From Gammaproteobacteria bacterium (GTDB taxonomy: Bacteria; Pseudomonadota; Gammaproteobacteria; GCA-002705445; GCA-002716945), in contig CBFHLA010000001.1 of NCBI GenBank assembly GCA_965656575.1, forward strand, positions 1 to 62,432: DNA of 62,432 nucleotides, given 5' to 3'. Positions 35,919 to 62,432 of this stretch are shown here, piece after piece (the first letter of the stretch is position 1; each line of letters opens with the position of its first letter). Position numbers and translations under genes: made by a program. The notes below the pieces were generated by a model. The model was not told the origin of the DNA and did no database searches. It was given only the letters and a program-made list of their open reading frames with translations.

Positions 35919-38900
35919 ATGGCAAAGAAAAAGTCTACACAACCTAAAAAATCTCAAGCACCAAGAGCAAGTAAATCTTCCTCTAGTGTAACTACGAATT
36001 CGTTCATTAAAGGAATGAATAAAGATGTTACACCTTCTTTTGAAAAAAATGATTCTTGGTATCACGCTATTAATGCAGCAAACAATAGTTCTGATGGAGA
36101 TGTGGGTGTTATTGGAAATGAACCTGCTAATTTACAATGCGGGGTGATTCCTTATACTGTAATTGGTGCTATACATAGATATGGTGATGAGTGGATTGTA
36201 TATTCTACAGATGATGTAAGTTCTGAGATAGGTAGGTTTAATGATAGTGAGTGTAAGTATGAAGTTATTGTTAATGATCCATGTTTAAATTTTAGCAAAA
36301 AACATTTAATCACAGGAGCTGCAAAAGAAAATTTTGATTGTACATGGCAAGTTTATTGGGATGATGGAAACAATCCGTCAAGATCAATGAATATAGATAA
36401 TGTACCTTGGGTTCAAGCTGTTACTTCAGCTACTGGAGACCCTTGTATTACATTTCAAGATACACCTTTTTTAGATTGTGAAAAGATAAGATTACATCCA
36501 TTAGTAGATACACCATGCGTGCAACTTACAAAAGCTACCGATGGTGGTACAATTAAAAATGGTGCATACCAGGCTTATATAGCATATACAGAAAATAGTC
36601 AAGTTATAAGTGATTATATAGGTATTTCTAATATTCAAACAATTTGGTCTCATGAAGGATCAAATGGTTCTTTAGATATTCAGATAGATGGTTTGGATAA
36701 AGATTACTTTTATTTTGATTTAATTCTTTTAATAAGACAACAAGGTCAAATATATACTAAAAAAATTGGCAACTATAGCACGGAGACTAAATATATAAAC
36801 ATTGACTATATAGATCAGTCTTTACCTTCTATATCATTTGAAGAATTATTTAGACAATCACCAAGTTATGAAAAGTCTGAGTCAATGTATGTATTAAATG
36901 ATTATTTAATAAGACAAGGACCAACAGAACAATTTGATTTTAATTATCAACCTCTTGCAAATAACATTAATGTTAATTGGGTTATAAATGAGGTAAGCGA
37001 ACAATATTATATAAATTCTGGAAATAAAATTGGTTTTATGAGAGATGAGCAATACGCTTTTTTCATAAGATGGATTTATAATACCGGAGAAAGATCTTTT
37101 TCATATCATATACCAGGTAGAGCACCAACTAATTACACTTTACCAAATGGTGTAACTGTAAATGAAACAGATGATATTTTTGGAGCCAACACAATAGATC
37201 CTGCGGGTGACCCTGTATATAAAGTATATAATACAGCCAGTGTTGATGCATTAGTTACAGAAATACAACCGGATGGTTCTACAATTATTGCTAGAGGTAA
37301 AATGGGATATTGGGAATCAACTGAAAAATATCCTGATAAAAAACCTGAGATATGGGGTGACTTATGTGGTAAACCTATAAGACATCATAAAATGCCTAAT
37401 GAAATGATTAACCCTGTATTAGGACTTACAGATGGTGTTGATACAGGAATAAGAATTTTAGGTGTTGAGTTTACTAATATTGAAAGACCAAAATATAATG
37501 ATGGTACATATATTCCAAATATTGTAGGTTATGAAATATTAAGAGGATCTAGATTAGGTAATAAATCTATACTTGCTAAAGGTATGTTTAAAAACATGCG
37601 TAAGTATAACTTACCTAGTGAGGATAATCTTTTAGGTAATGCACAGGGGTTATATCCTAATTATCCCTATAATGATTTAAGACCTGATATATTCCATACT
37701 ACAGTAAGAAAAACATCAGGGTGTCCTAATGGTGGACCATTTACTAATAGTGAATTTGGAGACTATCCGCCACTAAGTGGATTTACAGATGATGTATTTA
37801 CATTTCACTCTCCTGAGTTAATGTTTACTCAACCTTTTTTAAATGCATATGAAAGTGTATTTTATGGACAAATAAGCGGTGAGTCAAATGGTTATTTTAA
37901 ACCTTCAGAAAATCATCCGCAGTTTAAACTACTTAGAAATATATCTGCTATATTAGGAGGGTTAGTTGGTGTAGGTTATGCCATTAGAAATTTAAATGGT
38001 ACACCACAAACTACAGCTTTGCCTGTACAAGGTATAAATACTGCTCATCCTGAAATTAGGGGTGAAGAAATAATTGGTACAGAACAACGTGGTAATAGTG
38101 GATTTGTTAGTTTAACTGTACCACCCGGTGTTGCTACTGTAAATTGGTCACCCAGAAGTGGCGGAAGAATAAGTGGTGGAGATTTTAATAATAATTATAA
38201 AGGAGGTGGGGCATATACAGATGCACATCAAGCAATTCAATCTTATGTAAATAGCCAAGGTGGTGGTATAGTTGGAAATTGGTTAGATGGTCTCTTAGAT
38301 TTGTTTCTTGGAGGTGCTAGTGATATTGCAGCTGCCTCTGGTTTATCTAAGTCTACACAACAAAGGATACAAGATCAAGCTTTACAAAATTTAGAAGATA
38401 CAGCTAGTACTGAGAATGGTGGTCTTATGGGTGGTGGTGCAACTGAGGCAGTAACACTTGATACTTCCGAATCAAATTTAGGGCCGTTATTTAAAAAAGC
38501 AATGTCTTTAATTTTAATGCAAAAAAATATTGCTGTTGGTGGTCAAGAAATTATTGATTTAATATATAATTTAGTTTCTTTTCAAGAACATGTTTTAAAA
38601 TACAATTCACATGGATTTTATAATGATTTTACAGCTGCTTCATTAAGTGATTTATTTAGAGTTAAAAATCAAGCTTCAAATTATATTGGATCATCATTCC
38701 AAACTTTTGATGATAATAAATATAAAATAAACAATTTATTTAGACCTTCAACAGTTGCTATTTCAACGGCAGATCCTATACCAACAAATTATGGTGTAGA
38801 AGATAAATCTAGGTTTGCTTTGGGAGGATACGCAACAAGTACTGGTGCAGTGGTATCTACAAATGATACACAAAATTTATTAAATCCAGAGGGTCCATTT

Positions 38901-41900: not shown

Positions 41901-42392
41901 TACCAACTTGAAACATATGTATATAAAGGTGAGCCTGAATATAATATGTGTGGTGGTGATAAATGGGAAGATTTATTGTTTAATTTTGACAAAGCTATTA
42001 TTTACAATAATGAACAAGTATCAGGTTTGTTAAATATTGTTTCTCAACCTTATAATGATCCGTGGGGTGAATTGCAATATCCAATAACTAATGTTAACTC
42101 TACAACTATTTTAGCTTCTAAAGTAGAACATAAGTTTAGATTTAATCAATTTGCGGATATTACTAATGATAGAGGTGAGTTTAGTAATGCAGAACAATCT
42201 GTATTTAATACACAGTGTAATGGATACATTAGACCTTTGAACTCAACTAATTTAAATTATTATAAACCAGCAATGCAACGTAAAAAGTTTAGACATTATT
42301 CAAATCATGTTTTATTGAGAAGACAAGAATCAGGAAATAGAAAAATGTTATTAAGACTAGAAAATACTAAACTATTACTTTCAATGAGATAA
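35919..42392 (+). CDS. giant virion (tail/nozzle-like?) protein with embedded vWA domain (2157 aa)
   Basis: Uninterrupted 6.5-kb ORF. MIDAS DSSGS at 40662-40676 and ICITDG at ~41172-41183. This segment is flanked by Cys-rich CP(P/T)GY motifs. Confidence 0.75.
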   Translation: MAKKKSTQPKKSQAPRASKSSSSVTTNSFIKGMNKDVTPSFEKNDSWYHAINAANNSSDGDVGVIGNEPANLQCGVIPYTVIGAIHRYGDEWIVYSTDDVSSEIGRFNDSECKYEVIVNDPCLNFSKKHLITGAAKENFDCTWQVYWDDGNNPSRSMNIDNVPWVQAVTSATGDPCITFQDTPFLDCEKIRLHPLVDTPCVQLTKATDGGTIKNGAYQAYIAYTENSQVISDYIGISNIQTIWSHEGSNGSLDIQIDGLDKDYFYFDLILLIRQQGQIYTKKIGNYSTETKYINIDYIDQSLPSISFEELFRQSPSYEKSESMYVLNDYLIRQGPTEQFDFNYQPLANNINVNWVINEVSEQYYINSGNKIGFMRDEQYAFFIRWIYNTGERSFSYHIPGRAPTNYTLPNGVTVNETDDIFGANTIDPAGDPVYKVYNTASVDALVTEIQPDGSTIIARGKMGYWESTEKYPDKKPEIWGDLCGKPIRHHKMPNEMINPVLGLTDGVDTGIRILGVEFTNIERPKYNDGTYIPNIVGYEILRGSRLGNKSILAKGMFKNMRKYNLPSEDNLLGNAQGLYPNYPYNDLRPDIFHTTVRKTSGCPNGGPFTNSEFGDYPPLSGFTDDVFTFHSPELMFTQPFLNAYESVFYGQISGESNGYFKPSENHPQFKLLRNISAILGGLVGVGYAIRNLNGTPQTTALPVQGINTAHPEIRGEEIIGTEQRGNSGFVSLTVPPGVATVNWSPRSGGRISGGDFNNNYKGGGAYTDAHQAIQSYVNSQGGGIVGNWLDGLLDLFLGGASDIAAASGLSKSTQQRIQDQALQNLEDTASTENGGLMGGGATEAVTLDTSESNLGPLFKKAMSLILMQKNIAVGGQEIIDLIYNLVSFQEHVLKYNSHGFYNDFTAASLSDLFRVKNQASNYIGSSFQTFDDNKYKINNLFRPSTVAISTADPIPTNYGVEDKSRFALGGYATSTGAVVSTNDTQNLLNPEGPFSGPISALYGALKFNIDNQYGQLDGIKQIPMKGCVEILDPTLPDEYKYTSKPIFSGDVFIARYTEKCIMPIFTDFLIGQYDGYPYDYYLRYNVPYPRFWINSRKFDMAGMAATVSSLGLNQIFGIGDVSGATVPNEMYYLDRGDTCGIQLIALMGDSLNSAFAMNHAYMYSHINGINDFYVETEINLPYRDYEEPKERRFYDTYTYNDLDDLFHAEIQKYDNFYKYDESLSPSKFVTQNTSFAQLQDKDYDPLVSETCYTYYPKRLIYSLQANEEDKRDYWRQYLFANYKDFKDRVSVIKSFDKTGAIMFFPYQSPQILQGVDTLRTDANTKITIGDGGLFKQKLQNIVNSDLSNEYGSLESQRGVINTPAGLFYISQAQGKIFQFTPSKGLDPISNMGMKWWFNKYLPSRFIKQFPLSEGTEWADNPVVGVGCQVIYDPNDDIVYFMKKDYSIKPEWAAKATFNDSLVKPISIDTGLPTKLRVDIGDPLYFNDCSWTISYDPKAKAWISFHDWHPEFALPSINHFFTTKTIESDVPICPPGYSFNSTTGLCEIIQNTQQPADITVDEVAASVTGGPQACLIDLVITMDSSGSTNNNCTGNAPAYIPMQFDATGQLIAGTGVVGNTCRSSAELRWLDVFLNNPLIDTALNNGTMQIGFANWATNSNQYFVNNTSLYTGAGGGGTWNNGINSVAIINWYIANWNVPGPGNTNANVALGTATPTTGNGGLALLNDKVHSQLAASYPARSQSATFRQVLICITDGNGGIQPQPAVTAFQTPLAGNGNTGAWANTNLGDPNKQEIWGGFVGNGDNGVPGNAALLNSISGTNYSQPGVPSAPYQFTTDALNNASLAQTANAIAGAVCSTPYVCECPTGYELVYLGSNGFYDAPTGTCDDITPPICRQVSCSCPPPIPGFTSTLLGTCPDTLPELAYIGDPNWIDPTPPICDIYYQDTVQPSYKTGSFWRHNVRCDLFANYYGKNYSWEIELISNTGQAVNTIRSVEYQLETYVYKGEPEYNMCGGDKWEDLLFNFDKAIIYNNEQVSGLLNIVSQPYNDPWGELQYPITNVNSTTILASKVEHKFRFNQFADITNDRGEFSNAEQSVFNTQCNGYIRPLNSTNLNYYKPAMQRKKFRHYSNHVLLRRQESGNRKMLLRLENTKLLLSMR

Positions 42393-45025
42393 TGAATAAG
42401 AAATTTAAACATATAGAATCAAGAGGATTGCCCGGAGGACCTAATGAGCAGTTTACATATATTACTGGGGTATTTTCTATAGATGGATATAAGTCAGATA
42501 GTCCTGATGTAAACAATCCTTTTAATATTATTCCGTCCAGTAATATAACTATGGAAGGTGTAGACTTTCCAGTTAGAGGTTATGGAAATAATGGTATTGT
42601 TCAAGATATGAAGCCTGGGGGTAATTACAACTATGGAGATGCAGACTATGTATTTGAAGTACCTATCGCACAACAAGGTGGACAAAGAGCTACTATATCT
42701 GCGTATGAAGAACCAGCTTGGTATGAAAAGGCGGTGGATTATTTAGCAAGTCCTATGACAGCTTTAGGTTATGCTACTAGAAATCAAGATTTACCAGATA
42801 GGTTACCAATTAGTGCAGAAAATAGAAATGCATTTGATGGAGTGATTGATACAATTAATCCATTTGCTTGGGCAAAGTATGCGGCATCTGCTAAACGTAA
42901 TTTAGATCAAGGAGAATATCTTGATGCTGGTTTTGATGCATTAGGTGCAATTCCAATTGTTCCTGCATGGTTATCAAAAGGAAAAAATGTAGCTAAAAAT
43001 GTACCAGTAGATAAACTTGATGATTTAGTTGAGGTGGTTACCGCAAATGGATCAATAAAGAAAATACCCAGAAAAGATGCTATAAGATTAAATAGAGTTG
43101 AAGATGCTAATGTAAGTAATACATCTTTTAGTAATTATGAAGATGGAAATTGGTTTGCTGATAACTTAAGTGAATTTTATGTTAATAGAACAAAAAATGC
43201 TATGAGTCCTGTTAGTTATGATTTACTAGATCCAAAAGATCCTAGAAGATTAATAACAATGTATATGGATCCATCAGATGCTAAAAACTTTAATTTGATT
43301 AAAGGAACAGCAACTGAGCGTGCATTAAATATGAGCGGTGGCATGGGTAATATGCCATTACCAAGTGAATACGTTCTTCCACCTGCTCTTGTTAAACAAA
43401 TAAGAGAAACTGGTAAAATTCCAGGTGCTTCTACTTTTATAGGGGATGCTGATCAAGTAATGAAGAACTTATCTGATTTCTATAAAAAGTATGGTGGAGA
43501 TATTAGCGGATTAGATAAAGCTCAGCTAGGTGCTTTTTTAAAAAGATTAAAACCCGCTATTAAAAAAGGTGTTAATTATATAGATGAATTTATTCAAAAT
43601 GATTTATATAAATATAACCCTTGGGCATATAACAATATAAACTCAAAGCTTCCAGAGTGGTTGCAATTAAGTGGCGAAAATGAAAAATGGTTACGACAAG
43701 TTGGAGAACCAGCAATTAGAGATGCACAAGCAACGCGTACTGTAAGAGAAATAGGAGAGAAGATAGATCCTAGACAATTTGCAGAAAAGCTTGCTGAACT
43801 TCAAAATATGAAACCGGGACAGTTTCAACTTAGTAAAAGATATCCGGGGCCTTTTTTTAAAAAGGGGGAAACATTTTTTGATTATAACAAAAAGTCTAGA
43901 TCTGGTTTAGATGGTAAACGTAATACTAGAGGAAGATCAGGAAGTGCTGATTATTTAATTGAATTTGATCCATCAGATCCAATTAAGTATCAAGGTATGG
44001 ATTCATATTTTCAACCAGCTTATATGCAAAATATGATGCTAGATCCAGCACCATTTGATAAATGGATTGGAGATATTGGTATTATGAAACCTAAAATGAG
44101 AGGGGTTGAGAATTTTAACTTTTATAAAAAAGATCCTTTTTGGGCTTATAAAAAAGTACCGTTAGATAAATTACAAGAAGGCGGACAAGCCCCTTTTGAT
44201 AAAGAAAGTTGGGAATATTATAGACAACAAAATCCAGAAGCTGTAATGAATCCTCCTGTTAATGATAGTGTTGTAATACCACCTAAAGATGGATTTACAA
44301 AACAAGAGTTTATAGAAAATCTTGCTAAACCCAAACCTGAATTTCAAAAACCTAAGACATTAAACTTTAATAATATTTTAGATTATGTTGTTGAAACAAG
44401 AGGGGGTAATAGAGATCTTTGGGGTAAAGCTGCTGATACAATAGCTTTTCATGAATCAGGTCCTTGGGCAAGAATGGATGTTGGAGCTAAACAATATCTG
44501 GGTGGACCGGGTAGAGGTTTGTTTCAATTTGAAGGTCCATCACTTAAGACTGCACAAAAAAGATATACAAATATTGCAAAGTCAAGAGGATTTACACCTA
44601 ATCCTGATATTTTAAATGCTAAGTCTGCTGATCAATTAAATGCACAAGATCAATATACTTTGTTCTTTGCGAATTTAATTGAGTCAAAAGCAAAGTTATC
44701 TGATTATGCAGATGGTAAAATGAAGCTAGAAGATTTATGGTTGAAGGGGCATAAGAATATTGAGAAGCCAGGAGATAGAGAATCATTTTTAGAAAGTCTT
44801 GAGGCAGCACAAAAAGAAGGTATAAAGAATGGTTATACTACTTTTAAAAAGGGTGGTGAATTTACCCTTTATGATATATATAAAAAGTATGTCATGGGTG
44901 GTGCAACTGATGAAGTTAGTAAAGATATTTATGATAAATTAAATAGAGTACACTATAAAGATGCAAAAGGAGTTGGAATGTCAGTTCCAAATTATATTCT
45001 TACTTATGTAATGAAGGGTTCTTAA
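42392..45025 (+). CDS. large virion/ejection-type protein with C-terminal lytic-transglycosylase-like motif (877 aa)
   Basis: AFHESG...GRGLFQFE (44444-44533) resembles the SLT signature ES...GLMQ. TAATG-coupled to the 2157-aa gene. Confidence 0.6.
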   Translation: MNKKFKHIESRGLPGGPNEQFTYITGVFSIDGYKSDSPDVNNPFNIIPSSNITMEGVDFPVRGYGNNGIVQDMKPGGNYNYGDADYVFEVPIAQQGGQRATISAYEEPAWYEKAVDYLASPMTALGYATRNQDLPDRLPISAENRNAFDGVIDTINPFAWAKYAASAKRNLDQGEYLDAGFDALGAIPIVPAWLSKGKNVAKNVPVDKLDDLVEVVTANGSIKKIPRKDAIRLNRVEDANVSNTSFSNYEDGNWFADNLSEFYVNRTKNAMSPVSYDLLDPKDPRRLITMYMDPSDAKNFNLIKGTATERALNMSGGMGNMPLPSEYVLPPALVKQIRETGKIPGASTFIGDADQVMKNLSDFYKKYGGDISGLDKAQLGAFLKRLKPAIKKGVNYIDEFIQNDLYKYNPWAYNNINSKLPEWLQLSGENEKWLRQVGEPAIRDAQATRTVREIGEKIDPRQFAEKLAELQNMKPGQFQLSKRYPGPFFKKGETFFDYNKKSRSGLDGKRNTRGRSGSADYLIEFDPSDPIKYQGMDSYFQPAYMQNMMLDPAPFDKWIGDIGIMKPKMRGVENFNFYKKDPFWAYKKVPLDKLQEGGQAPFDKESWEYYRQQNPEAVMNPPVNDSVVIPPKDGFTKQEFIENLAKPKPEFQKPKTLNFNNILDYVVETRGGNRDLWGKAADTIAFHESGPWARMDVGAKQYLGGPGRGLFQFEGPSLKTAQKRYTNIAKSRGFTPNPDILNAKSADQLNAQDQYTLFFANLIESKAKLSDYADGKMKLEDLWLKGHKNIEKPGDRESFLESLEAAQKEGIKNGYTTFKKGGEFTLYDIYKKYVMGGATDEVSKDIYDKLNRVHYKDAKGVGMSVPNYILTYVMKGS

Positions 45026-45056
45026 ACCTTAAAAATTAGTGATTCTCCTTAATTAT

Positions 45057-45068
45057 TTGTATATTAAT
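45057..45068 (+). promoter_or_regulatory. recurrent motif TTGTATATTAAT (copy 6)
   Basis: Lies 23 nt upstream of ATG 45080. Confidence 0.35.
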
Positions 45069-45079
45069 AATATAATATT

Positions 45080-46966
45080 ATGAGTGTGAAAGTAAACAAA
45101 ATAAGTTTAAAACAGGAAGGTGGGCAAATGATGCCTGAACAATCTGGGATGCAGCAGCAAGCGCAGCAACCACAGGTTGATCCTCAAGTAATGGAAATAT
45201 CTCAAGCCATTGCATCTTCTGTACAAGAAGGTCAGAATCCACAAGAAGTCGTGATGGCTCTTGTTCAAAATCAAGTAGATCAGCAAGTTATAGCTCAAGC
45301 TTTGATGATGGTGGGTATGGCAGAAGAAGATATTATTACTTTATTTGAACAAATTGAAAGAAGCACTCAACCTTCATCACCAGAGGAAGTAAATGCAAAT
45401 CCTGAATTACTTTCAAGAAATGAAGATATAATAGAACGAGAAGAACAAGAAGCTGCTCAACAAAATCAAATGATGGGTATGGCTAAATCTGGTATAGAAA
45501 TTAAACCAGAAAATAAAGGAAAATTTACAGCATGGGCAAAGAAACGTGGCATGACTGTTTCTGAAGCTGCAAACAAAGTAATGTCAAACAAAGACAGATA
45601 TACAACTGATATTGTTAAAATGGCAAACTTTGCTAAAAATGCAGCAGGCTGGAATAAAGAATATGGTGGGGATGTAAATAATCCTATGGGTTATGTAATG
45701 AGAAGCATGGCTAATTTTCAAAGTGGTGGACAACCAAAAGGTCAAATGATAAATGGTGTCTTTATTCCAGATGAAAGTGAAATAGCAAATGATGCATTTA
45801 ACAAAAATTTGCAAAGACAGGATCAATATTATTTTTCAGATCCACAATATGCAGTATTGCCAATGATGCCACCTCCAACAGTGAATCCGTTATTTGATAT
45901 TATTAATACTGTGGGATCTGCGATTGGAGATGTTAAAGGTGAGTTTAGTAACTTTGGAGATAAAGTAGATCAGTATAAAGCTGACAAATATAAATATTAT
46001 GATGTAGATCTTGATTTTAGTGATGTAAGATCAGAAGAAAACATTAATAAATTTAAAGATTGGGCAACTGCTGAAGTACAAGAATTACAATATCAAACTC
46101 AAGAGAATAAAGCAAAAGCTGACAAACAAGTATCTGACTTGACAGTAGCAAAACCAACATTTGAGCAATGGTTACAGCAAAATCCAAACATTACAAATAT
46201 GGATACTGCAAGAAGTATGTTTGACAGTATATATAATAAAATGTTTGGTGGATCTGTTTATAGTGCACAAATGGGTTTTGAAACACCGGGTTTTAATCCT
46301 GATGCAGATGGTGATGGTATACCAGATGTCATAGATATAGACGGTGGAGAGGGTACAGGTGTACCTGCTTATGGAACAGTTAATAGACCTAACCTTGAAG
46401 ATATGTACAATGAGATTAACTTTGAACCAGAAGTTAATGTTAATAACCCAATATCTGGTACAATAGATAGATTGGGTGATAACCCATATATAAGAGCCGG
46501 TGCTTCTATATTAGGAGCAGCATCAGATTTTGCTGGTTTATATAATAGAATTGCAGATCAAAAAACTTATTTGGAAGCTCAAGATCAACTTGAAGAAAGA
46601 TCTGGTGCTGATTATAAGTATGGAACAAAAATGTCAGGACCAAGAACTAGAGGTACTTATGATGCTTTATCTGGACAATTAGGTAGTGAAGCAGATAGAG
46701 TAGCGGGATACTACATGAATTTTGCAGGCAGCCCTTATAGTTTTTCTGGAACTGCAAAAAAAGGTGGAGAGTTTAAACCACACATGATGTTTGATCCTAA
46801 AACAGGTAAAGGTTATAAAGCTAATGTAACGGCTGACCATGAGAGAATGGCTGAGATGGGGTACTTACATAAAGATGAAATGCAACAAGGTGGTGAAGTA
46901 TTAGAATTATCACAAGATATGATAGCACAACTAATTGCAGCTGGAGCTGACATAGAAATATTATAA
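45080..46966 (+). CDS. large virion/ejection-type protein (628 aa)
   Basis: Q-rich N-terminus. Calcium-binding-like DADGDGIPDVIDIDGGEG (46301-46354). KKGGEF motif at 46757-46774. Confidence 0.6.
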   Translation: MSVKVNKISLKQEGGQMMPEQSGMQQQAQQPQVDPQVMEISQAIASSVQEGQNPQEVVMALVQNQVDQQVIAQALMMVGMAEEDIITLFEQIERSTQPSSPEEVNANPELLSRNEDIIEREEQEAAQQNQMMGMAKSGIEIKPENKGKFTAWAKKRGMTVSEAANKVMSNKDRYTTDIVKMANFAKNAAGWNKEYGGDVNNPMGYVMRSMANFQSGGQPKGQMINGVFIPDESEIANDAFNKNLQRQDQYYFSDPQYAVLPMMPPPTVNPLFDIINTVGSAIGDVKGEFSNFGDKVDQYKADKYKYYDVDLDFSDVRSEENINKFKDWATAEVQELQYQTQENKAKADKQVSDLTVAKPTFEQWLQQNPNITNMDTARSMFDSIYNKMFGGSVYSAQMGFETPGFNPDADGDGIPDVIDIDGGEGTGVPAYGTVNRPNLEDMYNEINFEPEVNVNNPISGTIDRLGDNPYIRAGASILGAASDFAGLYNRIADQKTYLEAQDQLEERSGADYKYGTKMSGPRTRGTYDALSGQLGSEADRVAGYYMNFAGSPYSFSGTAKKGGEFKPHMMFDPKTGKGYKANVTADHERMAEMGYLHKDEMQQGGEVLELSQDMIAQLIAAGADIEIL

Positions 46967-46968
46967 TT

Positions 46969-52800: not shown

Positions 52801-53159
52801 GAGAAGCAACTATATTTAAAACAAAACCCAATGAGTTTGTTGTACGTTATCAACTTAATGAATTTGACCCTAATTCTACAGATATAAATAAACAATATAA
52901 AACATATGCTCAAAATGAAGTTGTGTTATCATATGATGAAAGCTTAGATTTTTCACAAGATTTAAATAAAAGATTTAGTGAAATTATGGATGCATTGGAT
53001 AGACAGAATGTTCAAAATAATCTTATGGAAATGCAATCTAGAGCTGCAAATTTAACTGAAGAAAGTTGGATTAATGAATATATGAGAAAAGTTCCTGGTG
53101 CTACAAAAGAAAATGCGAAATTAGCATATGAGCAGACCATGGATAATCTTAAAAAATAA
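49821..53159 (+). CDS. large virion/ejection-type protein (1112 aa)
   Basis: ORF track; charged, coiled-coil-rich; no motif recognised. Confidence 0.6.
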   Translation: MATYIKGEKNFYPDIKPFTPDYKFLNATLDAREAKYQAGWQATNDLYSRIYSDLSREDTKDFQKHFIEKLAPEMQKISGLDLSIAKNVDAAKGVFAPFFEDDLVVKDMVYTSTYKQQMRYADQLAQSPIQEVREKYNPIATEAMNYRLQEFQNASAGQALGMRLPEFVEDPDIPTLGQKYLQDLGYKFEEYDRLQDTSGPDGIPGTKDDTPNKWIITEKGGKRVEIDAYNQIMSGLYDDPRVTKWYNTKAYVDSKRYATQASQDGSISEQQAMNDWAKEQVFRLDELNRSKINNTKEEIKSTNDVVVKWDNFSSNKGLTPAEQQHVEKEKSYAEQLQADLEKRIGVQKIVESPDIDDQALMSKAYSMLSNYYMDQDMRRAAYNFSNLERSLKIKEDPFTLQDEKYKYELQKIRVKAWYDKELEDIKQEDRLELAEFERIADIEKLQLEGKIAGQDALANVRGQSGFDYSSPFSSTYQMKDGKFVNVDPIKANNIAIAEKESQITSEKVGLLGDMLSVRYQNPDNKYSIKLTKEDGTQFDFTGTPLEISNELKKKKRIEEDGVVIETDQFQYYQDIVKLFDEQSKWFENRDKVYQEKTPEYLQPGGRYDKIYNQLFRQDPQDYEKSGLVLREDLFNKTVAENAATFYDAGKNAATALQESDNTFDELVKQGYPLPYTEENGVKKFMNKKEYMDLFREEAKAGKIKNFDPSGVNKASDGDDDPNWKDGEFKTMPGAAGGLPTFIYVPEAWDYDAMDGKSSYIWDKIKEYIVKEQNVVPSKTFISLDRGLGSASTTDIGFVATETVRTDNNPEKGTRGNELLATSIYQQQVSGKAGGLGTQVIMRPDDTSVIENLNIGEGVQKTDTQKASEFLLNILQGSQSKTGEFSLTYFPNLGPRIFDDEGEEVRTPTAAYQYSDFSPELIKTLTNSNNLPENVSLEAMKKVLGNGVMVVFDRNTDVNPGAYDNSRQSFIEKQIDLSPNQSYTYTGKGSMFSPGEATIFKTKPNEFVVRYQLNEFDPNSTDINKQYKTYAQNEVVLSYDESLDFSQDLNKRFSEIMDALDRQNVQNNLMEMQSRAANLTEESWINEYMRKVPGATKENAKLAYEQTMDNLKK

Positions 53160-53170
53160 ACTAGCATAAT

Positions 53171-56100
53171 ATGTCAGAGTTAACAAACAATTTACCAAAT
53201 CCGGATTTTGATTTGCAACAACGAATTGTACAAGATTCAGTTGACATGAATCCTATTGATACATCTGTTCCTTACCAATCTATAGATGATATACTACCTG
53301 AATTGAATAACCCTATAGATGATCAGTACATGAAGCAAATTGATATGTACAGAACTGAAATGGATAAAGTAGGTCCTAATGCTATTGGTAATATGTTTAT
53401 GGATAAACTAACTCCTGGTTTATCAACTAGTACAGAACCGCAAAGAAATTTATCTATTGCTGAGCAACTTCAGCAAAAGTTAAAAGAACCTTTGGTATCA
53501 GATGCAGGCACGTTACCTAACCCAATATGGAGTAATGTAAGACAAATTAATTTTGATAGACAATATAATAGTGATGCTTTTGCAGATATAGGTTTTGCTC
53601 CTTATGCGGACATGGATGCTGTATTTAATAAAAACATGACTGGTTATGATGGGTTCCAAAGAGGTTTTAAACAATTTGGCAATCTATTTTACACAGGTTT
53701 TGCATCTAGTTATAGATCTATTGCGGATATATTTGATGGTGATAGTTATTGGGAAGATCCAGATTTAACTTCAGCACAAGAAATGGAAGATGCCATGAGA
53801 ATTGGTGGTAGTACAGACGGCAGCTTAGGTGGTTGGTTTGGTAACCTTGGTTTAAACTTTGGTTATACAGCAGGTATTGTAGCATCTATTGCCGCTGAAG
53901 AAGCAATATTAGCAACTGGTGCTGCCCTTGCAGCTATACCAACTGGTGGTGGTAGTTTAGCTGCATTTATTGCTGCACAAGCAAGATTTATACCCAGAAT
54001 AAAAAAAGCTGTTGATTTTACAGTTAGGGGAACTACATTTGGTAGAGGTGCAAAAGCATCTTATGATTTTGTAAAACAAATATCTCAAGTAGAAAGAGCA
54101 AGAGATTTATTTAATGCTGCTCAACTTGGTAGAGGTATGAATACTGTATTTAGAACAATTGCTCCAGAAACTTTATATGCAATTAAAAATTGGAAGACTG
54201 CAAAAAATACTGCACAAAATACAATCAATCTTGCTAAGATTTCAAATATGTTTGGTGCATTCTATAGAGATTTTAGAATGGTTAATGCTTCATTGTCTGA
54301 GTCCAAAATGGAAGCAGGTATGGTTTACAATCAAGTTTTAAATAATGGTTTAGCTGAAGCAAATTATAAAAATCAAGGTGGGGGTGTAACAGAACAGCAG
54401 ACTAAAGATATAATGATTAAAGCTGCTGAGGCATCCTTTAAAGCTCAGATGGCAAATTTTGCTGTTATATATGCTTCTAACAGAATTGTTTTAAAAAATG
54501 CATTTGGTGGCTGGAGAAGACAAGTTACTAACTCAAACAGAATTCTACGTAAAGATGCATTTACAGCAGTAAAGGGAAGTAAATATTTAATAAAGAGAAT
54601 ACCACAAGAACTTAAATTAGCTTTTAATAGAGCCGGTTACAAAGGAGCTGCTAAAGTTATGGGTACTCAGATGTTAAGATATGGTGCTGCTAATTTAGCG
54701 GAAGGTGCACAAGAAATATCTCAAGAAGCAATTTCTGCTGCAACTGTTGGTTACTATAGTTCATTGTTAAGAGATCCTTTAAGTGGTGGCCCATCAACTC
54801 TTGCGGGTTATGTTGGTCAATCAACTTCTAATCTTGCATCAAAAGAAGGCTTAAGTGTTTTTCTTTCAGGATTTTTAATGGGTGGTTTAGCTGGTCCTTA
54901 TCAGCAAGTTTTGTTTCAGGGTTTACCTGCTATTGGTAGGAGTGCATATGCAAAAGCAAACACAAAATTTGGTGATGGTACACAATCAAACTACGCCAAA
55001 GAATATAGTCAAAGAAGAGAACAAGTATTAGATGATATTGTAAAACAAATTAATGAGCGTGGTGAAATGATGAAACAAGATTTAGAATCTGTGCTTTCAC
55101 CATCTCAATTTCAAGCTATATTACAAAAACAAAATTTTTCTGAGCAAAGCATTGCATTTGCAGATAATGATAAATATGATTTTGATAATGCACAGTTTGC
55201 TGCACAGTTTTTTAATTTGTATTCAGCATATGAAAGAGGCTCTATAAAATTTGCAAGAGAAAGTTATGTTGAGTTTAGTAAAATGTCAGATAAAGATCTT
55301 GCAGAAGCATTTAATCCAAAAGAGTTTGGAAAACCTGAGAAGGTAAGAAAACGTATTCAAAAACAAATTAATTTGATAGATGAATATGGTGAGACTTTTG
55401 CTAATAAATTACCTAAAGTATTTGATAAAACTTTTAACTATGAAAATTTAACTGCTGGTAGTCCAGAGTATTTAAACTTACAAAGAGAAGAACAAGCATA
55501 TAAACATAATAAAATGCTTTATATGTTTACTAATGAAGCTTATAAAAATGCTGTAGAAAGACAAGCAGCTATAGAGACATCATTAGAAACAGAACCTTTG
55601 TTTGCTAAACAAGCAAGTTCTGATATAAGAATACTATATAACAAAGAAAGTATAGACCAAGAGTTAACCTTGCTAGATGCCGAGATTAAAGCTGCGGAAG
55701 AAGCAGGAGAATCTAAAACAGTAATTAACAAAAAGAAAAATAAAAGGAAAGCTTTACAGAAGTATGCTGATGTTATTAATGATCCTAAAAATATAACTAA
55801 AAAAGGAAACATAAGCAGGAGACAAGGTACAGTAAATAAAGTTAGATCTGCATTTAAAAACTATATACAAGTTCTTGCAGAAAATAATTCTGACTTTGTT
55901 AATCAAGATTTAGTTGATGATGCAGTTGCAAAAATTGTAGATCATAGCGCACTTAGATCTGATGCAGCATCATTTTCTAGGTCTATTGATTTTATGACTA
56001 ATCCTACTAAGCAACAAGAAATTGCCGATAGATCAAAACAATACTATGAATGGTTGTATAAAAATAGAGATGCAGTAGTAAAAGAAGCAGCCGCTAGGTA

Positions 56101-59100: not shown

Positions 59101-62100
59101 AGAATATTTAAAGGGTCAAATGGCCGAAGAGCAAAAAAAATCAATTGATTTAACTGCTCTTGCTGCAACACCAATTGATGTTATTAATTCTAAGATTAAA
59201 GAGTTAGAAGAACAAATAGTAGCTGAAGTAGGTTGGAAAAACAAAAGAAAAGCTCTTAAGGAAAATAAAGAATATCAAAGTTTACTACAAGAAAGAGAAA
59301 GACTTTTAAAACCAGGGAATAAAGTTTTACCAGCAGGTTATTCTGTAAGTGATTTAGAAAGTTTAGAAGACTTTTTACTTTGGGCACAAGATAACTTACC
59401 TGAGTTTATTACTGTAGCTGATATAAAACAATTAGGTAATAACCTTAAAGCAGGTGGTAAAAGAGTTGGTGCATTTGTTTTAGACTTAAATGGTTTAGCT
59501 GGTGGTTTAACTACAGGTGGTACGATATATACAGGTGCAACAAATCCTTTTAGATATCATGAAGCTTTCCATGGTGTATACAGAATGCTACTTTCACCAG
59601 AAGAGCAAAAGCGTTTGCTTGCAATTGCTAAGAAAGAAAAGAGAGCACAATTAAGAAAAGAAGGTAAGAGTCTTCAAAAAGAGTTAATTAAATTTAGAAA
59701 CTCTGCGGATACTTATACAAATATGACTCAAGAACAACTTGAGAGAGAGTATTATGAAGAGTATATGGCGGATCAGTTTGAGTTATTTAAAGCTAATCCT
59801 AAAGATACTAAAACAAACAGTTCAATAAAATCATTCTTTAATAGAATAATTGAATGGATTAAAGCTGTGTTTGAATCATACTCAAAAACAGAGTTGCAAA
59901 CTTTGTTTGAAAATATTGATGCTGGTAAATATGCAAATGCTACTGTTGTAGCAAATGACTTTACTATGCAGGCAGGACCGGCTATTACAATTGCGAATGC
60001 ATTGTTGCCATATGAAGCTGTACAAGTAAATGGCTCTAAAGGAAGATTATATTTAGATTCTAATATTGCTAATAATCTAGCTTTAACTATTGCTGCCAAC
60101 TATATTAATAGAAGAAAGGATCCAAGGTTTTATCTTAATGATGAAGGTAAACAAAAAACAAATGAAGAGATTATAGAAGAACTGCTAAATGACTTTTCAG
60201 ATTTATATGATCCTAATAATCCTGCAAACCAAAAGTTCTTAGCAACAGATACACCAACTAATCAATTAAGATATGATAAGTTAGTTCAGATATATCAAGC
60301 AATAAATTTTGATTTATTTGCTGATGTAAAAAACCAACCTATCTATAAGGCTGTTATGGATGTGCTTGATATTATAGACGTTCAGAAACAACAGCAAGAG
60401 TTATCAGAAGATGATTATGAAAATCAAGATGGTCTTAGAAATGTAACACAGTTTGGTAAAGAAGCTTATATGAATGGTGGTTTTAGTTCACTACCTACAT
60501 ATATTAGAAGTTACTTGGCAACTATAACTAAAGAACAAACTGATATTTTTGGTAATGTAGAACTTACAGAAGGGGAACCTTTGATTGTACCTATAGATGT
60601 ATATAGTGTCTATAATGGAATATTAAAATCTGTAAAATCAAAAGAAGATCCTTTAGAGATTTTACAGGCAATGTATTTATTTTCTCAAGACAATCCTAAT
60701 ACTAAAGGTGTTGTTAAAAAGATGTTTGAGGATATAGGAATACCTTACGGTGTTGATGTTAGTCAAATGACTTTACCTGAAAACATTAAAGATCCTTTAT
60801 TATTTAATCAGATAACAAAAGCATTTACTAACTTTAGAGTAGAGTGGTTATTCCAACAAATGGATGAATCAGGAAATGTAATAACATATTCTGCTGCAGA
60901 AAGGGATGATATACACACCCAAATAGATCTTTGGGGTCAAGCATATATAACATTAAGTCAACAGTGGTTACTTGATAAAAGAAAAAAGAAAGAAGCTACA
61001 GATTCTATCAAAGCTTTTAGAGCTCAATTATTAGGAACAGAGACTATTGAAGATGCTGCTATGCAAAATTTGTCTGTAAGCATAGCTCAAAATCTTTTTG
61101 ATAGTACAGGTATAAAACTTAGTCCGTTATATATAAAGTATAGTATTATTAGATCTAGAGGGGCAGGATCATCTAATCAACAATTGTTATTAGACTTTAA
61201 TGAAACATCAGATCCAGTTACAGCAGAAGATCTTTATTTTATAAATGACTTGATAGTCAAAGATGTAGATCTATATTCTGAATATGGTGCTACATCTAAG
61301 ATTAGAAAAATGGCAATCAATAATGCTGTATTTGATGAGTCAATTGGATTATCAGTATTTACTAATGTAAATGGTGATATGGTTAATGCACACCAGAAAC
61401 CCACATTTAATCTTAAAAGAGTTGCAGCACTTAATAAAATAAGTGAAAGACAAAAATTACTTAACTCAGTATTTTTAAGTTCTAATTACCTATTAAACAA
61501 TCCTGCTTTTGAAAGCATGGCTAATAGTAACCTTTTATCTATTAAAAGAATTTCAGGTACTAAATTAGTTGAAACGCTAGATAGAGAGTCTGATTATGAC
61601 GCGTTTATAGAAGGTATCTTAAATACAACTGAGTATGGTAGTTATACACCGAAGCAATTTATAACAAACCTTATTAACAATTATACGTTAGACTTTAATC
61701 CTAAAAACAATAAATTAAAGAGTGAGGTTACAATTGAAACTGAGTCAGGTGGAACAGAGATTGTAGCTACAGCACCTTTACTTATTAGAGTATTAGAAGC
61801 ATCTAACACTGGTGATTTAGCATCACTACCGGTTATAAAAGCTGTATCTGGTAAGGACGCAGCTATTACTACAGAAGTGTTAAACGTTGTATATGACTCT
61901 ATAGAAAATGAGTACAACCGTATCAAAAGAGAAAATAATGATGAAACAAAAACTCTTGATGATATTGTTGGATATAATGTAGGAGAAGTTCAAAGAGCTA
62001 ATACTTTATTTAATAGTGAGGCATTTTTCTTAGGAGATAATGTACAAGTTAAATCACAACTAGAAATGTCTGCAATGAATCAAGATCAAGACATTTCATT

Positions 62101-62432
62101 TGATCAAGCCGTAAAACTTGCAGGTTTTTCTAAATCTCAGTTTTTAGATAAAATAATAAGAACAAGTTTAGAAGCTAAGTATAATAGATTTGAAGCTCTT
62201 ATAGAACAATATGAAATAAATGATTTAATTAACAATGACCTTAAGAAAGGTATTGTATTAGATAAAAAGGGTGAGGCAAGAGCTTTATCTATTAAGGCTG
62301 CTGAAGCACTTAATTTAAGAGCTGATCAGAGATATAACTTAAGACAAGTATTCTTTAATGACTATATAAATACTAAATCACTAAATGAATTACTATTAGG
62401 AGATCAAGCTAGAATACTCAAAAATAGTATAG
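53171..62432 (+). CDS. giant protein, 5' partial (more than 3087 codons, runs off the window): candidate polyvalent/ejected virion protein with zincin-like metallopeptidase motif
   Basis: Not in the ORF track because there is no in-window stop. I hand-translated 53171-61020 and 62342-62431 without meeting a stop. No other long + ORF is listed here. Gly/Ala-rich hydrophobic segments at ~53821-53990 and ~54848-54940. HEAFH at 59558-59572. Confidence 0.85.
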   Translation, partial: MSELTNNLPNPDFDLQQRIVQDSVDMNPIDTSVPYQSIDDILPELNNPIDDQYMKQIDMYRTEMDKVGPNAIGNMFMDKLTPGLSTSTEPQRNLSIAEQLQQKLKEPLVSDAGTLPNPIWSNVRQINFDRQYNSDAFADIGFAPYADMDAVFNKNMTGYDGFQRGFKQFGNLFYTGFASSYRSIADIFDGDSYWEDPDLTSAQEMEDAMRIGGSTDGSLGGWFGNLGLNFGYTAGIVASIAAEEAILATGAALAAIPTGGGSLAAFIAAQARFIPRIKKAVDFTVRGTTFGRGAKASYDFVKQISQVERARDLFNAAQLGRGMNTVFRTIAPETLYAIKNWKTAKNTAQNTINLAKISNMFGAFYRDFRMVNASLSESKMEAGMVYNQVLNNGLAEANYKNQGGGVTEQQTKDIMIKAAEASFKAQMANFAVIYASNRIVLKNAFGGWRRQVTNSNRILRKDAFTAVKGSKYLIKRIPQELKLAFNRAGYKGAAKVMGTQMLRYGAANLAEGAQEISQEAISAATVGYYSSLLRDPLSGGPSTLAGYVGQSTSNLASKEGLSVFLSGFLMGGLAGPYQQVLFQGLPAIGRSAYAKANTKFGDGTQSNYAKEYSQRREQVLDDIVKQINERGEMMKQDLESVLSPSQFQAILQKQNFSEQSIAFADNDKYDFDNAQFAAQFFNLYSAYERGSIKFARESYVEFSKMSDKDLAEAFNPKEFGKPEKVRKRIQKQINLIDEYGETFANKLPKVFDKTFNYENLTAGSPEYLNLQREEQAYKHNKMLYMFTNEAYKNAVERQAAIETSLETEPLFAKQASSDIRILYNKESIDQELTLLDAEIKAAEEAGESKTVINKKKNKRKALQKYADVINDPKNITKKGNISRRQGTVNKVRSAFKNYIQVLAENNSDFVNQDLVDDAVAKIVDHSALRSDAASFSRSIDFMTNPTKQQEIADRSKQYYEWLYKNRDAVVKEAAARYLDTQKKNELINLLYEKDVAIEPTLVRKYFAGEITEKDLLALLLQGNKGAFFIDGKLLNDRLEQDAKLIKEVASVLAGFVQLDQQIKAQEEKESPQAVQAETILDVEDKLEDAGIQINIGDINTSKTLKSILEKEYRKYRANTKDNILTPEQWRKTTNATNIVAALSALKRIWATGYDTIVVQNGQETAVKVKPTQQEIESEIGFQKFLDSREAIENPLVQSIVNDYGLNMGIFSRSNTGQAAVQPISGMDGVAFKGVRRSSAQGEFVEIVDANGNSLSNEMLEIINRPLGATFSSMEEAKVAFDTLEREYSDGTTFRFDGMSLSKGISVFSKVAIDDHPVGTEFIINSNPKHASRGTVSLVPADRWTNNFNARKDAAIYESELDFSKRFETEQISFTVLSADAPKVSTQDPVVIYSPRALDRETGEKQLALIGASLTEDQLLNGVIINILPNDKSYEDPFIINGISNPYIRRKNERVTLQVAIADPVLRNDLNQKLTDANLPTIPENGEIGYIPAESIIFKDDKGNQILPSQMTPEFASNVFVPQKGKTIEQTLEEAKINFAKQDLLLNTVETLIGEEQNVIKIGQLPEGFQIRNFSGYPDYDGSNPLIPLSELPYAANDRGDVLIFDITRAADGSMIDYETYSNITDPDQKAALVAEVEEGLNLPIGGQSISLFDKMMGPDTFNYTERYQYVVRQPNGTYTLATAKTTGLSKDVLEGVMLDMKTQAEKTRQENLVTSKNISKYPGKKVGDYINADYNTVFNNDTNKKFRVNMPKGFNLNITVDPWGKIRGEIYQNGVGRVGKYQYLYEADLNKEGSNISKLEQLLAKLTEQSAAKDINVTINNFTTSVPLNASVNEMLDSLSTKLSPQIRRGGYFYLNADSAMVQAAIDKAANVNRPDNVEPKKSISQGQKAKIDNQEADILSRLAEDQVDARDEVAAEADRARAGEVSDVVWEGFINDPTTVQKQLIDSIAQKLIAGVPLTEREQAIRQERSIAPQIEEYLKGQMAEEQKKSIDLTALAATPIDVINSKIKELEEQIVAEVGWKNKRKALKENKEYQSLLQERERLLKPGNKVLPAGYSVSDLESLEDFLLWAQDNLPEFITVADIKQLGNNLKAGGKRVGAFVLDLNGLAGGLTTGGTIYTGATNPFRYHEAFHGVYRMLLSPEEQKRLLAIAKKEKRAQLRKEGKSLQKELIKFRNSADTYTNMTQEQLEREYYEEYMADQFELFKANPKDTKTNSSIKSFFNRIIEWIKAVFESYSKTELQTLFENIDAGKYANATVVANDFTMQAGPAITIANALLPYEAVQVNGSKGRLYLDSNIANNLALTIAANYINRRKDPRFYLNDEGKQKTNEEIIEELLNDFSDLYDPNNPANQKFLATDTPTNQLRYDKLVQIYQAINFDLFADVKNQPIYKAVMDVLDIIDVQKQQQELSEDDYENQDGLRNVTQFGKEAYMNGGFSSLPTYIRSYLATITKEQTDIFGNVELTEGEPLIVPIDVYSVYNGILKSVKSKEDPLEILQAMYLFSQDNPNTKGVVKKMFEDIGIPYGVDVSQMTLPENIKDPLLFNQITKAFTNFRVEWLFQQMDESGNVITYSAAERDDIHTQIDLWGQAYITLSQQWLLDKRKKKEATDSIKAFRAQLLGTETIEDAAMQNLSVSIAQNLFDSTGIKLSPLYIKYSIIRSRGAGSSNQQLLLDFNETSDPVTAEDLYFINDLIVKDVDLYSEYGATSKIRKMAINNAVFDESIGLSVFTNVNGDMVNAHQKPTFNLKRVAALNKISERQKLLNSVFLSSNYLLNNPAFESMANSNLLSIKRISGTKLVETLDRESDYDAFIEGILNTTEYGSYTPKQFITNLINNYTLDFNPKNNKLKSEVTIETESGGTEIVATAPLLIRVLEASNTGDLASLPVIKAVSGKDAAITTEVLNVVYDSIENEYNRIKRENNDETKTLDDIVGYNVGEVQRANTLFNSEAFFLGDNVQVKSQLEMSAMNQDQDISFDQAVKLAGFSKSQFLDKIIRTSLEAKYNRFEALIEQYEINDLINNDLKKGIVLDKKGEARALSIKAAEALNLRADQRYNLRQVFFNDYINTKSLNELLLGDQARILKNSI
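59558..59790 (+). other. zincin-like signature HEAFH ... EREYYEEYMADQFE inside the giant ORF
   Basis: In-frame HExxH preceded by GGTIYTGATNPFRY. About 60 residues downstream comes an EExMADxF segment that could supply the third (Glu) ligand. Confidence 0.45.

Follow-up and report, generated by a model that had tools for sequence, protein, structure and literature searches.

What is encoded by a run of six very large genes following the tail genes of a phage-like DNA? This question is raised by a stretch of 62,432 nucleotides (nt) from the contig CBFHLA010000001.1 (hereafter the window, meaning the whole stretch analysed), in which open reading frames (ORFs) of 2157, 877, 628, 930, 1112 and more than 3087 amino acids (aa) follow one another in the same direction on the + strand from position 35919 to the window end. 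On the basis of homology and synteny to cultured crAss-like phages, we consider it highly probable that this block is the crAss-type module for the muzzle, cargo proteins and virion RNA polymerase (RNAP) of a divergent marine crAss-like podovirus. New points are a marine lineage thus far unrepresented, with a fusion of a zincin-motif protein and RNAP, a mosaic protein with wall-directed cassettes, and two large orphan families.

An earlier interpretation made only from the letters and their ORFs (the sequence-only reading) had noted that six consecutive very large genes occupy about 42% of the window, and the ORF list and translations give 26,514 of 62,432 nt, i.e. 42.5%, with spacers of -1, 54, 2, 59 and 11 nt. 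Both motifs that it had quoted were also found: the 877-aa protein has AFHES...GRGLFQFE at residues 685–714 (nt 44444–44533), and the last ORF has HEAFH at residue 2130 (nt 59558–59572). The entire window is coded on the + strand and has a G+C content of about 32%; because a genome with such a low G+C content is rich in stop codons, ORFs of 2–9 kb cannot be attributed to chance and should be real genes. In accordance with this, homologues were found in public data for the 2157-aa protein (39 phage records), the 877-aa protein (188 proteins), the 930-aa protein (742), the 1112-aa protein (1,095 cluster representatives at E <= 0.001) and the last ORF (74). Standard domain searches gave little: Pfam had no match at E <= 0.1 for the five complete proteins and for a full-length counterpart of the last ORF (P0001, described below), and just DUF5856 (E 0.024, far below threshold) for the part of the last ORF inside the window; within the block, PHROGs gave generic "virion structural protein" matches for the 2157- and 877-aa proteins only; and sequence and profile searches of PDB with the 2157-, 877- and 3087-aa proteins, the RNAP region and the muzzle, lysozyme-like and 1112 profiles found nothing meaningful. 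A tblastn search of 50,697 phage records found none for the 930-aa protein, the 1112-aa protein and the first 2,276 aa of the last ORF. Promoter- and terminator-like sites in the block did not exceed those in shuffled sequences (78 versus 97 and 11 versus 8, respectively).

The most informative member of the block is the last ORF, which has no stop codon before the window end. P0001, a public full-length protein of 4,727 aa, is 100% identical to it and has 51 relatives of 4,387–5,263 aa, and the profile of these 52 sequences was compared with known phage proteins using hhalign. Residues 411–886 aligned with residues 359–832 in the N-terminal part of crAss001 gp47 (91.7%, E 7.9e-07) and residues 2069–2258 with residues 2103–2294 in its C-terminal part (96.9%, E 1.5e-10), the N-terminal 2,300 residues of the giant protein being collinear with gp47; residues of about 130–1000 are common also to 21 unfused proteins of 1750–2650 aa. 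The HEAFH motif within the second segment is found identically at residue 2157 of crAss001 gp47, and HExxH is present in all 51 aligned giants of 4,387–5,263 aa, the outlier P0074 having HEAFE; a zincin-like domain in RNAP-associated proteins has been described by Yutin and Drobysheva. Further downstream, the same profile aligned with phi14:2 gp66 (g066) at 99.7% (E 1e-26; residues 2881–4076 versus 664–1835, 1,045 columns) and with crAss001 gp50 at 99.7% (E 8e-27; residues 3139–4283 versus 1066–2215). P0001 has GADFDIDKLY at residue 3617, DFD[IV]D is invariant in 52 of the 52 family members, and this catalytic DFDID, which lies about 1.6 kb beyond the window end, is identical to residues 1361–1365 of phi14:2 gp66. 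Of the two fused parts, the gp47-like one lies entirely inside the window and the polymerase one for about its first third, and the region beyond the window end matched 98 crAss-like phage RNAP genes in tblastn.

The phi14:2 gp66 has been crystallised as a virion-packaged two-barrel RNA polymerase that transcribes early genes; three proteins of this system are present in the virions, one partner is zincin-like, and in some phages the three are fused into one huge polyprotein (bioRxiv 10.1101/2020.03.07.982082). The lengths of gp47 and gp50 of crAss001 (2341 and 2412 aa) add up to about the 4,727 aa found here, and crAssphage is annotated with another fusion, that of RNAP plus the third protein. 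In three relatives, the gene after the giant encodes 1,871–1,938 aa and matches gp49 at 99.3% and g065 at 95.8% in hhalign, so that the set of three RNAP proteins is complete there. Judging from these alignments, the last ORF is a crAss-type zincin-motif protein fused to a two-barrel virion RNA polymerase; the system itself has been described before, and the novelty lies in how its parts are fused. Separately, we have found that several giants of the relatives (P0055, P0058, P0074 and that at 17344–27344 of L015) have add-on domains of the PDDEXK nuclease, UvrD/RecD-like helicase and 2OG-Fe(II) oxygenase types, and the injected protein set may do more than transcription.

At the opposite end of the block, the 2157-aa protein and the two genes before it correspond to the tail-barrel end of crAss001. 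A four-sequence profile of the 2157-aa protein aligned with crAss001 gp44 at 87.5% (E 3.6e-6; residues 29–398 versus 9–394), and a second collinear segment (1166–1446 versus 964–1201) was found at 76.7% with the profile tool, while the same segment in a local hhalign run (1166–1444 versus 964–1199) reached 20% only. The profile also matched phi14:2 g071 (82.9% and 55.7%, hhalign). BLAST relatives include phi4:1 gp042, which has been detected in virions by tandem mass spectrometry (MS/MS), a Leptolyngbya phage protein, FpV structural proteins and crAssE-Sib WOZ57294, annotated as "Muzzle protein" by its authors, and the PHROG match to virion structural proteins has an E of 4e-46; a profile search of PDB with this protein gave no match. 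The preceding 224-aa protein, when examined as a three-sequence profile, showed 86.7% to crAss001 gp40 over 207 columns and 99.8% to a crAssE-Sib protein annotated "Ring protein", with a PHROG match to virion structural proteins and syntenic counterparts in phi4:1 and Lbo-JY46. The 316-aa protein showed 93.3% to crAss001 gp43, which was deposited as a tail tubular protein, and 98.9% to a crAssE-Sib ring protein, and its phi4:1 homologue gp043 has been found in virions by MS/MS. The gene order of ring, ring and muzzle is the same as in crAss001, in which a hexamer of the muzzle protein acts as gatekeeper at the tip of the tail (PMC10172136). The architecture of gp44 comprises ring-joining, beta-propeller and crass domains. 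By profile homology, therefore, the 2157-aa protein is a homologue of the external tail-tip muzzle gp44 and not a cargo protein; accordingly, the idea of the sequence-only reading that the six genes form a cargo block applies to five of them and fails for this one, which is a cysteine-rich muzzle homologue.

The 628-aa protein gives a partial link to the proven cargo. Its residues 122–254 matched residues 357–485 of crAss001 gp45 in blastp (E 6e-9 in a small database), and its profile aligned with gp45 at 91.1% in hhalign through this one shared domain, the remaining sequence not aligning; the same short domain matched 14 crAss-like phage records, and orthologues of 616–1169 aa occupy the same slot in the marine relatives. 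In crAss001, residues 425–552 of gp45 bind the portal wing and residues 214–245 line the tail barrel (PMC10172136). We read the 628-aa protein as a counterpart of the cargo protein C1, on the basis of this partial homology. With the zincin–RNAP giant and this C1 domain, the earlier statement that nothing is recognisable downstream of 42392 proved wrong for about half of the residues, and the supposed undescribed cargo for host takeover consists for the most part of a virion RNAP system that has been described before and that transcribes early genes. A side observation on the 628-aa protein is that a peptide in its C-terminal part, KKGGEFKPHMMFDPKTGKGYKA...H (46757–46870, residues 560–597), shows 70% identity, across 34 residues, with a hypothetical protein from the Methylophilales phage Melnitz, which belongs to an unrelated host group. 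The features of the block and of the two ring genes are collected in Table 1.

Table 1. Position and basis of assignment of the block proteins, their modules and the preceding ring-protein genes
Feature	Position (nt)	Strand	Basis
Ring (tail-barrel) protein, crAss001 gp40-like, 224 aa	34278..34952	+	hhalign, PHROG, synteny
Second ring / tail-tubular protein, crAss001 gp43-like, 316 aa	34952..35902	+	hhalign
Muzzle (tail-tip gatekeeper) homologue, 2157 aa, 33 Cys	35919..42392	+	hhalign, BLAST, PHROG
Putative modular cargo protein, 877 aa, no Cys	42392..45025	+	homologue coverage, Pfam in relatives
Candidate lysozyme-like cassette with ES...GLFQ, aa 645–810 of the 877-aa protein	44324..44821	+	Pfam, sub-threshold
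Putative C1-like cargo protein, 628 aa, no Cys	45080..46966	+	blastp, hhalign
Conserved 930-aa protein, no Cys	46969..49761	+	homologue family
Conserved 1112-aa protein, no Cys	49821..53159	+	homologue family
Giant polyprotein, first 3087 of 4727 aa	53171..62432, no stop at window end	+	P0001, hhalign
gp47-like N-terminal module, aa 411–886 of the giant	54401..55828	+	hhalign
Zincin-like region with HEAFH, aa 2069–2258 of the giant	59375..59944	+	hhalign
Start of the stretch aligning to phi14:2 gp66 RNAP, aa 2881–3087 of the giant	61811..62431	+	hhalign

A boundary at nt 42392 is visible also in the amino acid composition. The five ORFs after this position total 6,634 aa and have no cysteine at all, versus 1.3% cysteine in the upstream proteins (P about 1e-38 at the upstream frequency), the ring proteins having 5 and 8 cysteines and the muzzle 33. 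This is a property of the families: the 1112 family has 5 cysteines in 127,849 residues and the 930 family 22 in 107,607, and crAss001 gp45–gp50 have 7 in 7,478 residues versus 10 in the muzzle of that phage. Suppression of cysteine has been published for the N4-like ejection operon, where it is explained by passage through the oxidising periplasm (PMC11445570). The cysteine pattern thus gives independent support, from composition, to the view that the five proteins encoded after nt 42392 would be ejected and that the muzzle would not, and it may serve as a way of delimiting ejected proteins from sequence data, with a sharp boundary in this case.

The 877-aa protein appears to be built of fixed ends and an exchangeable middle. 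When coverage was counted over 120 of the 188 homologues, the N-terminal 200 aa were covered by 81–105 of the 120 and the last 50 aa by about 100, whereas the middle was covered by 24–40; an N module (aa 1–225) and a C module (aa 800–877) are conserved, and the N-terminus matches phi4:1 gp040, a virion protein. In the relatives, the middle has SLT, GH24 lysozyme, LysM, PG_binding_1 and YkuD domains above the Pfam cut-offs, and in some members a match to ART-PolyVal (PF18760), which with 26.1 bits is below its cut-off of 31.2. We can regard the family as a single cargo slot whose end modules stay fixed while the cell-wall or effector cassette between them is exchanged.

The sequence-only reading had taken the ES...GLFQ motif of the 877-aa protein as lysozyme-like, and this assignment has gained weak support around a motif that is real. 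The cassette matched PF18013 (Phage_lysozyme2) with an E of 0.013–0.015 and 16 bits versus a cut-off of 28.2; five of ten relatives also matched PF18013 (best E 5.7e-5), all below the curated cut-off. Glu688 of the HES motif is invariant in alignment A2. An AlphaFold2 (AF2) model of the cassette is confident and all-helical, with a predicted local distance difference test score (pLDDT) of 86 and a predicted template modelling score (pTM) of 0.82; it matched no PDB structure, solved lysozymes included, and had three unnamed matches only in a library of viral predicted structures. No significant similarity was obtained by hhalign to the SLT and GH24 cassettes of the relatives or to the crAssE-Sib "tail lysozyme", and BLAST of the 877-aa protein against those proteins gave no match. 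A wall-degrading role of this cassette is plausible from its context, and the lysozyme domain is assigned as a candidate.

A short motif, [KQRE][KQED]GG[EQ] (e.g. FKKGGEF, LQEGGQ and QQGGEV), was also found in seven copies distributed over the 877-aa (42672, 44175 and 44847), 628-aa (45113, 46757 and 46883) and 930-aa (47866) proteins. None of the other 27 ORFs contains it, and about 0.05 per protein is expected by shuffling. A relaxed form, in which the second position may also be R, N, S or T, is 26 times commoner in the 877 family than in the giant family and in the relatives often stands directly before a LysM, lysozyme-like or other cassette; the motif may be a linker between modules or a site of processing or cleavage.

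A functional lead is lacking for just two members of the block, the 930- and 1112-aa proteins, and the substantial undescribed content that had been expected from the sequence-only reading is confined to them. The 930 family consists of homologues of about 800–1000 aa, none with a Pfam domain, and the N-terminal part of about 250 aa is extremely conserved with the motif EAEGGETV...GPRHSQGGVPM. Residues 64–154 aligned at 91–94% in hhalign with a 946-aa crAssE-Sib "structural protein", and this was the sole exception in comparisons of the 930, 1112 and 877 profiles with crAss001 gp45/46/47/49/50, phi14:2 g065–g072, phi4:1 gp37–41 and Lbo-JY46, in which nothing exceeded 30%. The region concerned (47158–47430) has the pattern VPR..ANIEAEGGETVL...GPRHSQGGVPMYLPEQSFIFSDT, very strongly conserved in more than 100 homologues and common to the crAssE-Sib structural protein, and it matched no known domain. 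Conservation in the 1112 family is highest over roughly the first 430 aa. The 1112-aa protein has no Pfam, PHROG or PDB sequence match, and its AF2 model (pLDDT 81.4, pTM 0.70; mixed helical and beta) had no match among PDB folds, the best E being 1.3. Its first 25 residues (49821–49895; MATY...KPFTPDYKFL) are nearly invariant across 118 homologues that are about 20% identical overall and are predicted to be disordered (pLDDT below 50); this terminus could be a docking, packaging or leader peptide. The order of 930-like, 1112-like and gp47-like genes was found in every clade compared, including two with an unfused gp47-like protein. Because no counterparts were detected, the cargo status of the two proteins is based only on their position and absence of cysteine, from which we infer that they are co-ejected partners of the conduit or chaperone-like type. 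With upwards of 700 and of 1,000 sequence clusters, respectively, these families are conserved partners of the injected polymerase.

We next compare the block with known systems. In crAss001 (Bayfield et al. 2023, PMC10172136), the order of ring, ring, muzzle, cargo and RNAP proteins is the same, the muzzle is cysteine-rich and the cargo cysteine-poor, and gp47 has the identical HEAFH. The differences are that the gp47-like and gp50-like parts form one 4,727-aa polypeptide here, that the muzzle has 2157 aa as compared with 1371 aa, that no gp46 homologue was detected here, that two extra conserved proteins (930 and 1112 aa) and the 877-aa wall-cassette protein are present, and that sequence identity is at or below BLAST detection. 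The phi14:2 g065–g071 region (bioRxiv 10.1101/2020.03.07.982082) shares the gp66 alignment with DFDID and a muzzle resembling g071; the three RNAP proteins are separate there (1797, 2180 and 1421 aa), whereas two are fused here and the third, judging from the relatives, is encoded past the window end by a separate gene for about 1,900 aa. The best BLAST relatives of the 2157-aa protein, with 25–28% identity, are in phi4:1 (Lightbulbvirus; gp035–gp045), Lbo-JY46 and crAssE-Sib, where counterparts of the 224-, 316-, 2157- and 877-aa proteins stand in the same order and are followed by several very large genes; the large genes after the 877-like gene have no detectable similarity to the 628-, 930- and 1112-aa proteins except for the aforementioned short match between crAssE-Sib and the 930-aa protein.

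The N4-like ejection operon (N4 gp50/51/52; DEV gp71/72/73; PMC11445570) is similar in that a giant virion RNAP and its helpers are ejected and are nearly free of cysteine, but its RNAP is of the single-subunit T7-like type in contrast to the two-barrel type here, and no sequence or fold match was found. T7 gp14/gp15/gp16 are likewise ejected and span the envelope, and the lytic transglycosylase of gp16 recalls the wall cassettes of the 877 family; no homology to them was detected, and the cassette in the window is not a demonstrable SLT domain. The proposal of tail genes followed by an ejection or cargo block, for which the sequence-only reading had cited T7-, N4- and crAss-like phages together, is upheld by homology for the crAss-like phages, and the likeness to T7 and N4 is one of analogy. 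A single-subunit RNAP of the N4 type was specifically considered for the giant ORF and was rejected, since both motif and profile indicate the two-barrel type and no such match was found in Pfam, PDB or phage records.

The crAss-type interpretation is supported by homology and synteny with crAss001 gp40, gp43, gp44, gp45, gp47 and gp50 and with phi14:2 g071 and g066, and by the virion proteins of the related phages: gp045, gp043, gp042 and gp040 of phi4:1, which are the homologues of the 224-, 316- and 2157-aa proteins and of the N module of the 877-aa protein, are annotated as virion proteins from MS/MS; the products of phi14:2 g065–g072 are virion proteins; and crAss001 gp45, gp46, gp47, gp49 and gp50 have been detected in virions, part of gp45 being located inside the tail and on the portal (PMC10172136). 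Several points weigh on the other side. The virion evidence comes from related phages, this phage being known from sequence alone; the homology between the muzzle and gp44 is seen at the sequence level as moderate profile scores (77–88%); the window does not reach the catalytic centre of the polymerase, which is known only from the identical full-length protein on another contig; for the 930- and 1112-aa proteins, no counterpart was detected in crAss001, phi14:2 and phi4:1; and no convincing transmembrane segment was found in any of these proteins, the best 19-residue hydropathy being 0.5–1.3.

These last two points bear on an alternative view, in which the 930- and 1112-aa proteins, possibly together with the 628-aa one, would belong permanently to the tail or the particle interior, for instance as a plug of the barrel or as an inner-capsid core on the portal, and would remain behind once the particle has emptied. 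For the 930- and 1112-aa proteins, neither an enzyme motif nor a transmembrane segment nor a homologue among the proven crAss001 cargo was found, the model of the 1112-aa protein is well folded and multi-domain (pLDDT 81), and the matching part of crAss001 C1 itself has been seen bound to the portal, all of which would suit resident proteins. The absence of cysteine from both proteins and its near absence from their families, as against the cysteine-rich ring proteins and muzzle upstream, points in the other direction, as does the position of the 930- and 1112-like genes, which in all clades examined are flanked by the C1-like gene on one side and those for RNAP on the other, and we judge residence in the particle to be unlikely, though the most serious of the competing views on the block. 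Another possibility concerns the 877-aa family and the add-on domains of the giants, which might be mainly injected anti-defence "polyvalent" effectors rather than entry machinery. Some 877-family members do carry ART-PolyVal in place of wall-binding domains, and in certain relatives of the giant a PDDEXK, UvrD-like helicase or 2OG-Fe(II) oxygenase domain is present; but the ART-PolyVal match is the aforementioned sub-cut-off one, effector-type domains were not detectable in the proteins of the window, and the majority of the 877-family cassettes are directed to peptidoglycan, which makes this view rather improbable. A genuine ejectosome of the T7 type (gp14/gp15/gp16), or of the N4 type (gp50/51/52) with a single-subunit T7-like RNAP, would have the same functional layout of tail genes and then large cysteine-free proteins, and a possible wall-degrading domain recalls the gp16 transglycosylase. 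As sequence and profile searches of PDB, in which the T7 and N4 ejection proteins are present, and fold searches gave nothing, and the polymerase part matches the two-barrel gp66 and gp50 at 99.7% with DFDID instead of T7-like palm motifs, we give this view hardly any credit.

Under the favoured crAss-type interpretation, a mechanism can be proposed in which packaging into the virion, ejection and early transcription are carried over by analogy from crAss001, phi14:2 and phi4:1. The muzzle would close the end of the tail barrel and face the medium, and the five downstream products would be packed inside the capsid and tail. At infection, the cargo would be extruded, at least partly unfolded, through the portal–tail channel ahead of or with the DNA. 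The end modules of the 877-aa protein would serve packaging and ejection and its middle cassette would be aimed at the cell wall; the 628-aa protein would act as the counterpart of C1, which binds the portal and lines the tail in crAss001; and the 930- and 1112-aa proteins would most likely help to build the conduit across the envelope. The 4727-aa polyprotein would deliver a two-barrel RNA polymerase, independent in the rifampicin-type sense, together with its zincin-motif partner, and the delivered polymerase would transcribe the early genes.

A regularity in the few cysteines that remain in these protein families was found when we surveyed the relatives P0001–P0074, L007 and L009–L015 and the named phages, partly outside the window. 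Each of the 52 marine giants has exactly one cysteine, located 1–4 residues from the C-terminus and at residue 4723 in the 4,727-aa protein, and the product of the next gp49-like gene (available in three relatives) has one at residue 3–6; the 21 unfused gp47-like proteins have a single cysteine 0–4 residues from the C-terminus. In clades L014 and L015, the upstream protein has a single penultimate cysteine and the next giant has Cys5. In phi14:2, the only cysteine of g067 is its last residue, g066 has only Cys3 and Cys2179 of 2180 residues, and g065 has only Cys3. In crAss001, gp47 has only Cys2339 of 2341 residues, gp50 has Cys5, one internal cysteine and Cys2404 of 2412 residues, and gp49 has only Cys5. 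Likewise, the only cysteine of phi4:1 gp38 is its last residue, gp37 has Cys4 and Cys516 of 517 residues, and gp35 has Cys3; and in Lbo-JY46, the only cysteine of a 1,552-aa protein is its last residue and the next giant has Cys4. In crAssphage LMMB and Rudgehvirus, the zincin protein has a penultimate cysteine and the RNAP fusion has Cys3 and 3–7 internal cysteines, with none near its C-terminus. Where the zincin-motif protein and RNAP are fused, as in the 52 marine giants, both junction cysteines are absent; the two gut fusions, of RNAP with the gp49-like protein, keep the 3–7 internal cysteines just mentioned.

A tentative explanation, toward which we lean slightly less than against it, is that the RNAP-associated cargo proteins might be joined head to tail, the C-terminal cysteine of each being disulfide-bonded to the N-terminal cysteine of the protein encoded next. 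Such a chain would be linear and threadable, with fixed order and stoichiometry; it would be ejected through the tail and would then dissociate in the reducing cytoplasm, and gene fusions such as the 4,727-aa protein would be the peptide-bond equivalent of one disulfide link. Alternatively, the terminal cysteines may serve otherwise, for example in anchoring to another virion protein, in metal binding between copies or as sites of another modification. We found no mention of terminal-cysteine pairing in the crAss001 atlas, the phi14:2 preprint or full-text literature searches. The terminal-cysteine rule bears on the question of how several proteins of 1,300–4,700 residues are ordered, kept stoichiometric and threaded through a narrow tail.

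The upstream genes of the window include those for the large terminase (TerL), portal, major capsid protein and tail fibres. TerL matched 139 phage records at 22–27% identity, and among the matches listed all are crAss-like or Bacteroidota phages (gut crAss-like phages, Flavobacterium psychrophilum FpV, Cellulophaga phi14:2, phi4:1 and phi17:2, Azobacteroides phage and IAS virus). The closest muzzle relatives, Lightbulbvirus and crAssE-Sib, are themselves outside the ratified order Crassvirales. No near-identical DNA was found among deposited phages; the relatives, close and distant, are marine metagenome contigs of 77–126 kb, many of them from Tara Oceans, and a scan of IMG/VR with the 930-aa protein found two close relatives only. 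The crAss-type infection apparatus is thus extended to an abundant and uncultured marine lineage without a representative among deposited phage genomes. One relative, L010, encodes at 35492–35498, in a gene running off the locus, a 1,079-aa protein with a weak match to Por_Secre_tail, a sorting domain of type IX secretion. This match hints at a Bacteroidota host for the clade, and the host of this marine crAss-like lineage is probably a member of Bacteroidota.

Three further observations concern genes upstream of the block. A 407-aa SbcD/Mre11-like "DNA repair exonuclease" (32422–33645; phrog_704, E 6e-44) is encoded within the tail gene cluster; its position is syntenic in the Leptolyngbya phage Lbo-JY46, and phi14:2 g075 is a calcineurin-like phosphoesterase among the genes for virion proteins, upstream of the ring and muzzle genes. 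Two gene pairs have near-identical N-terminal peptides, MGNILQDMMGLL and MSTILQDMMGML in the first pair (938–2263 and 3219–3878) and MALQFLTGIDVDGN and MAIQFESSLDVNGK in the second, tail-fibre-like pair (23108–24649 and 24715–28380), which suggests paralogues docking at one site through an N-terminal adaptor. Finally, three ORFs among the tail-fibre genes (21770–22348, 29517–31727 and 31747–32307) contain 5.7%, 3.3% and 7.0% cysteine, in contrast to the cysteine-free cargo block, and are presumably external parts stabilised by disulfides or metals.

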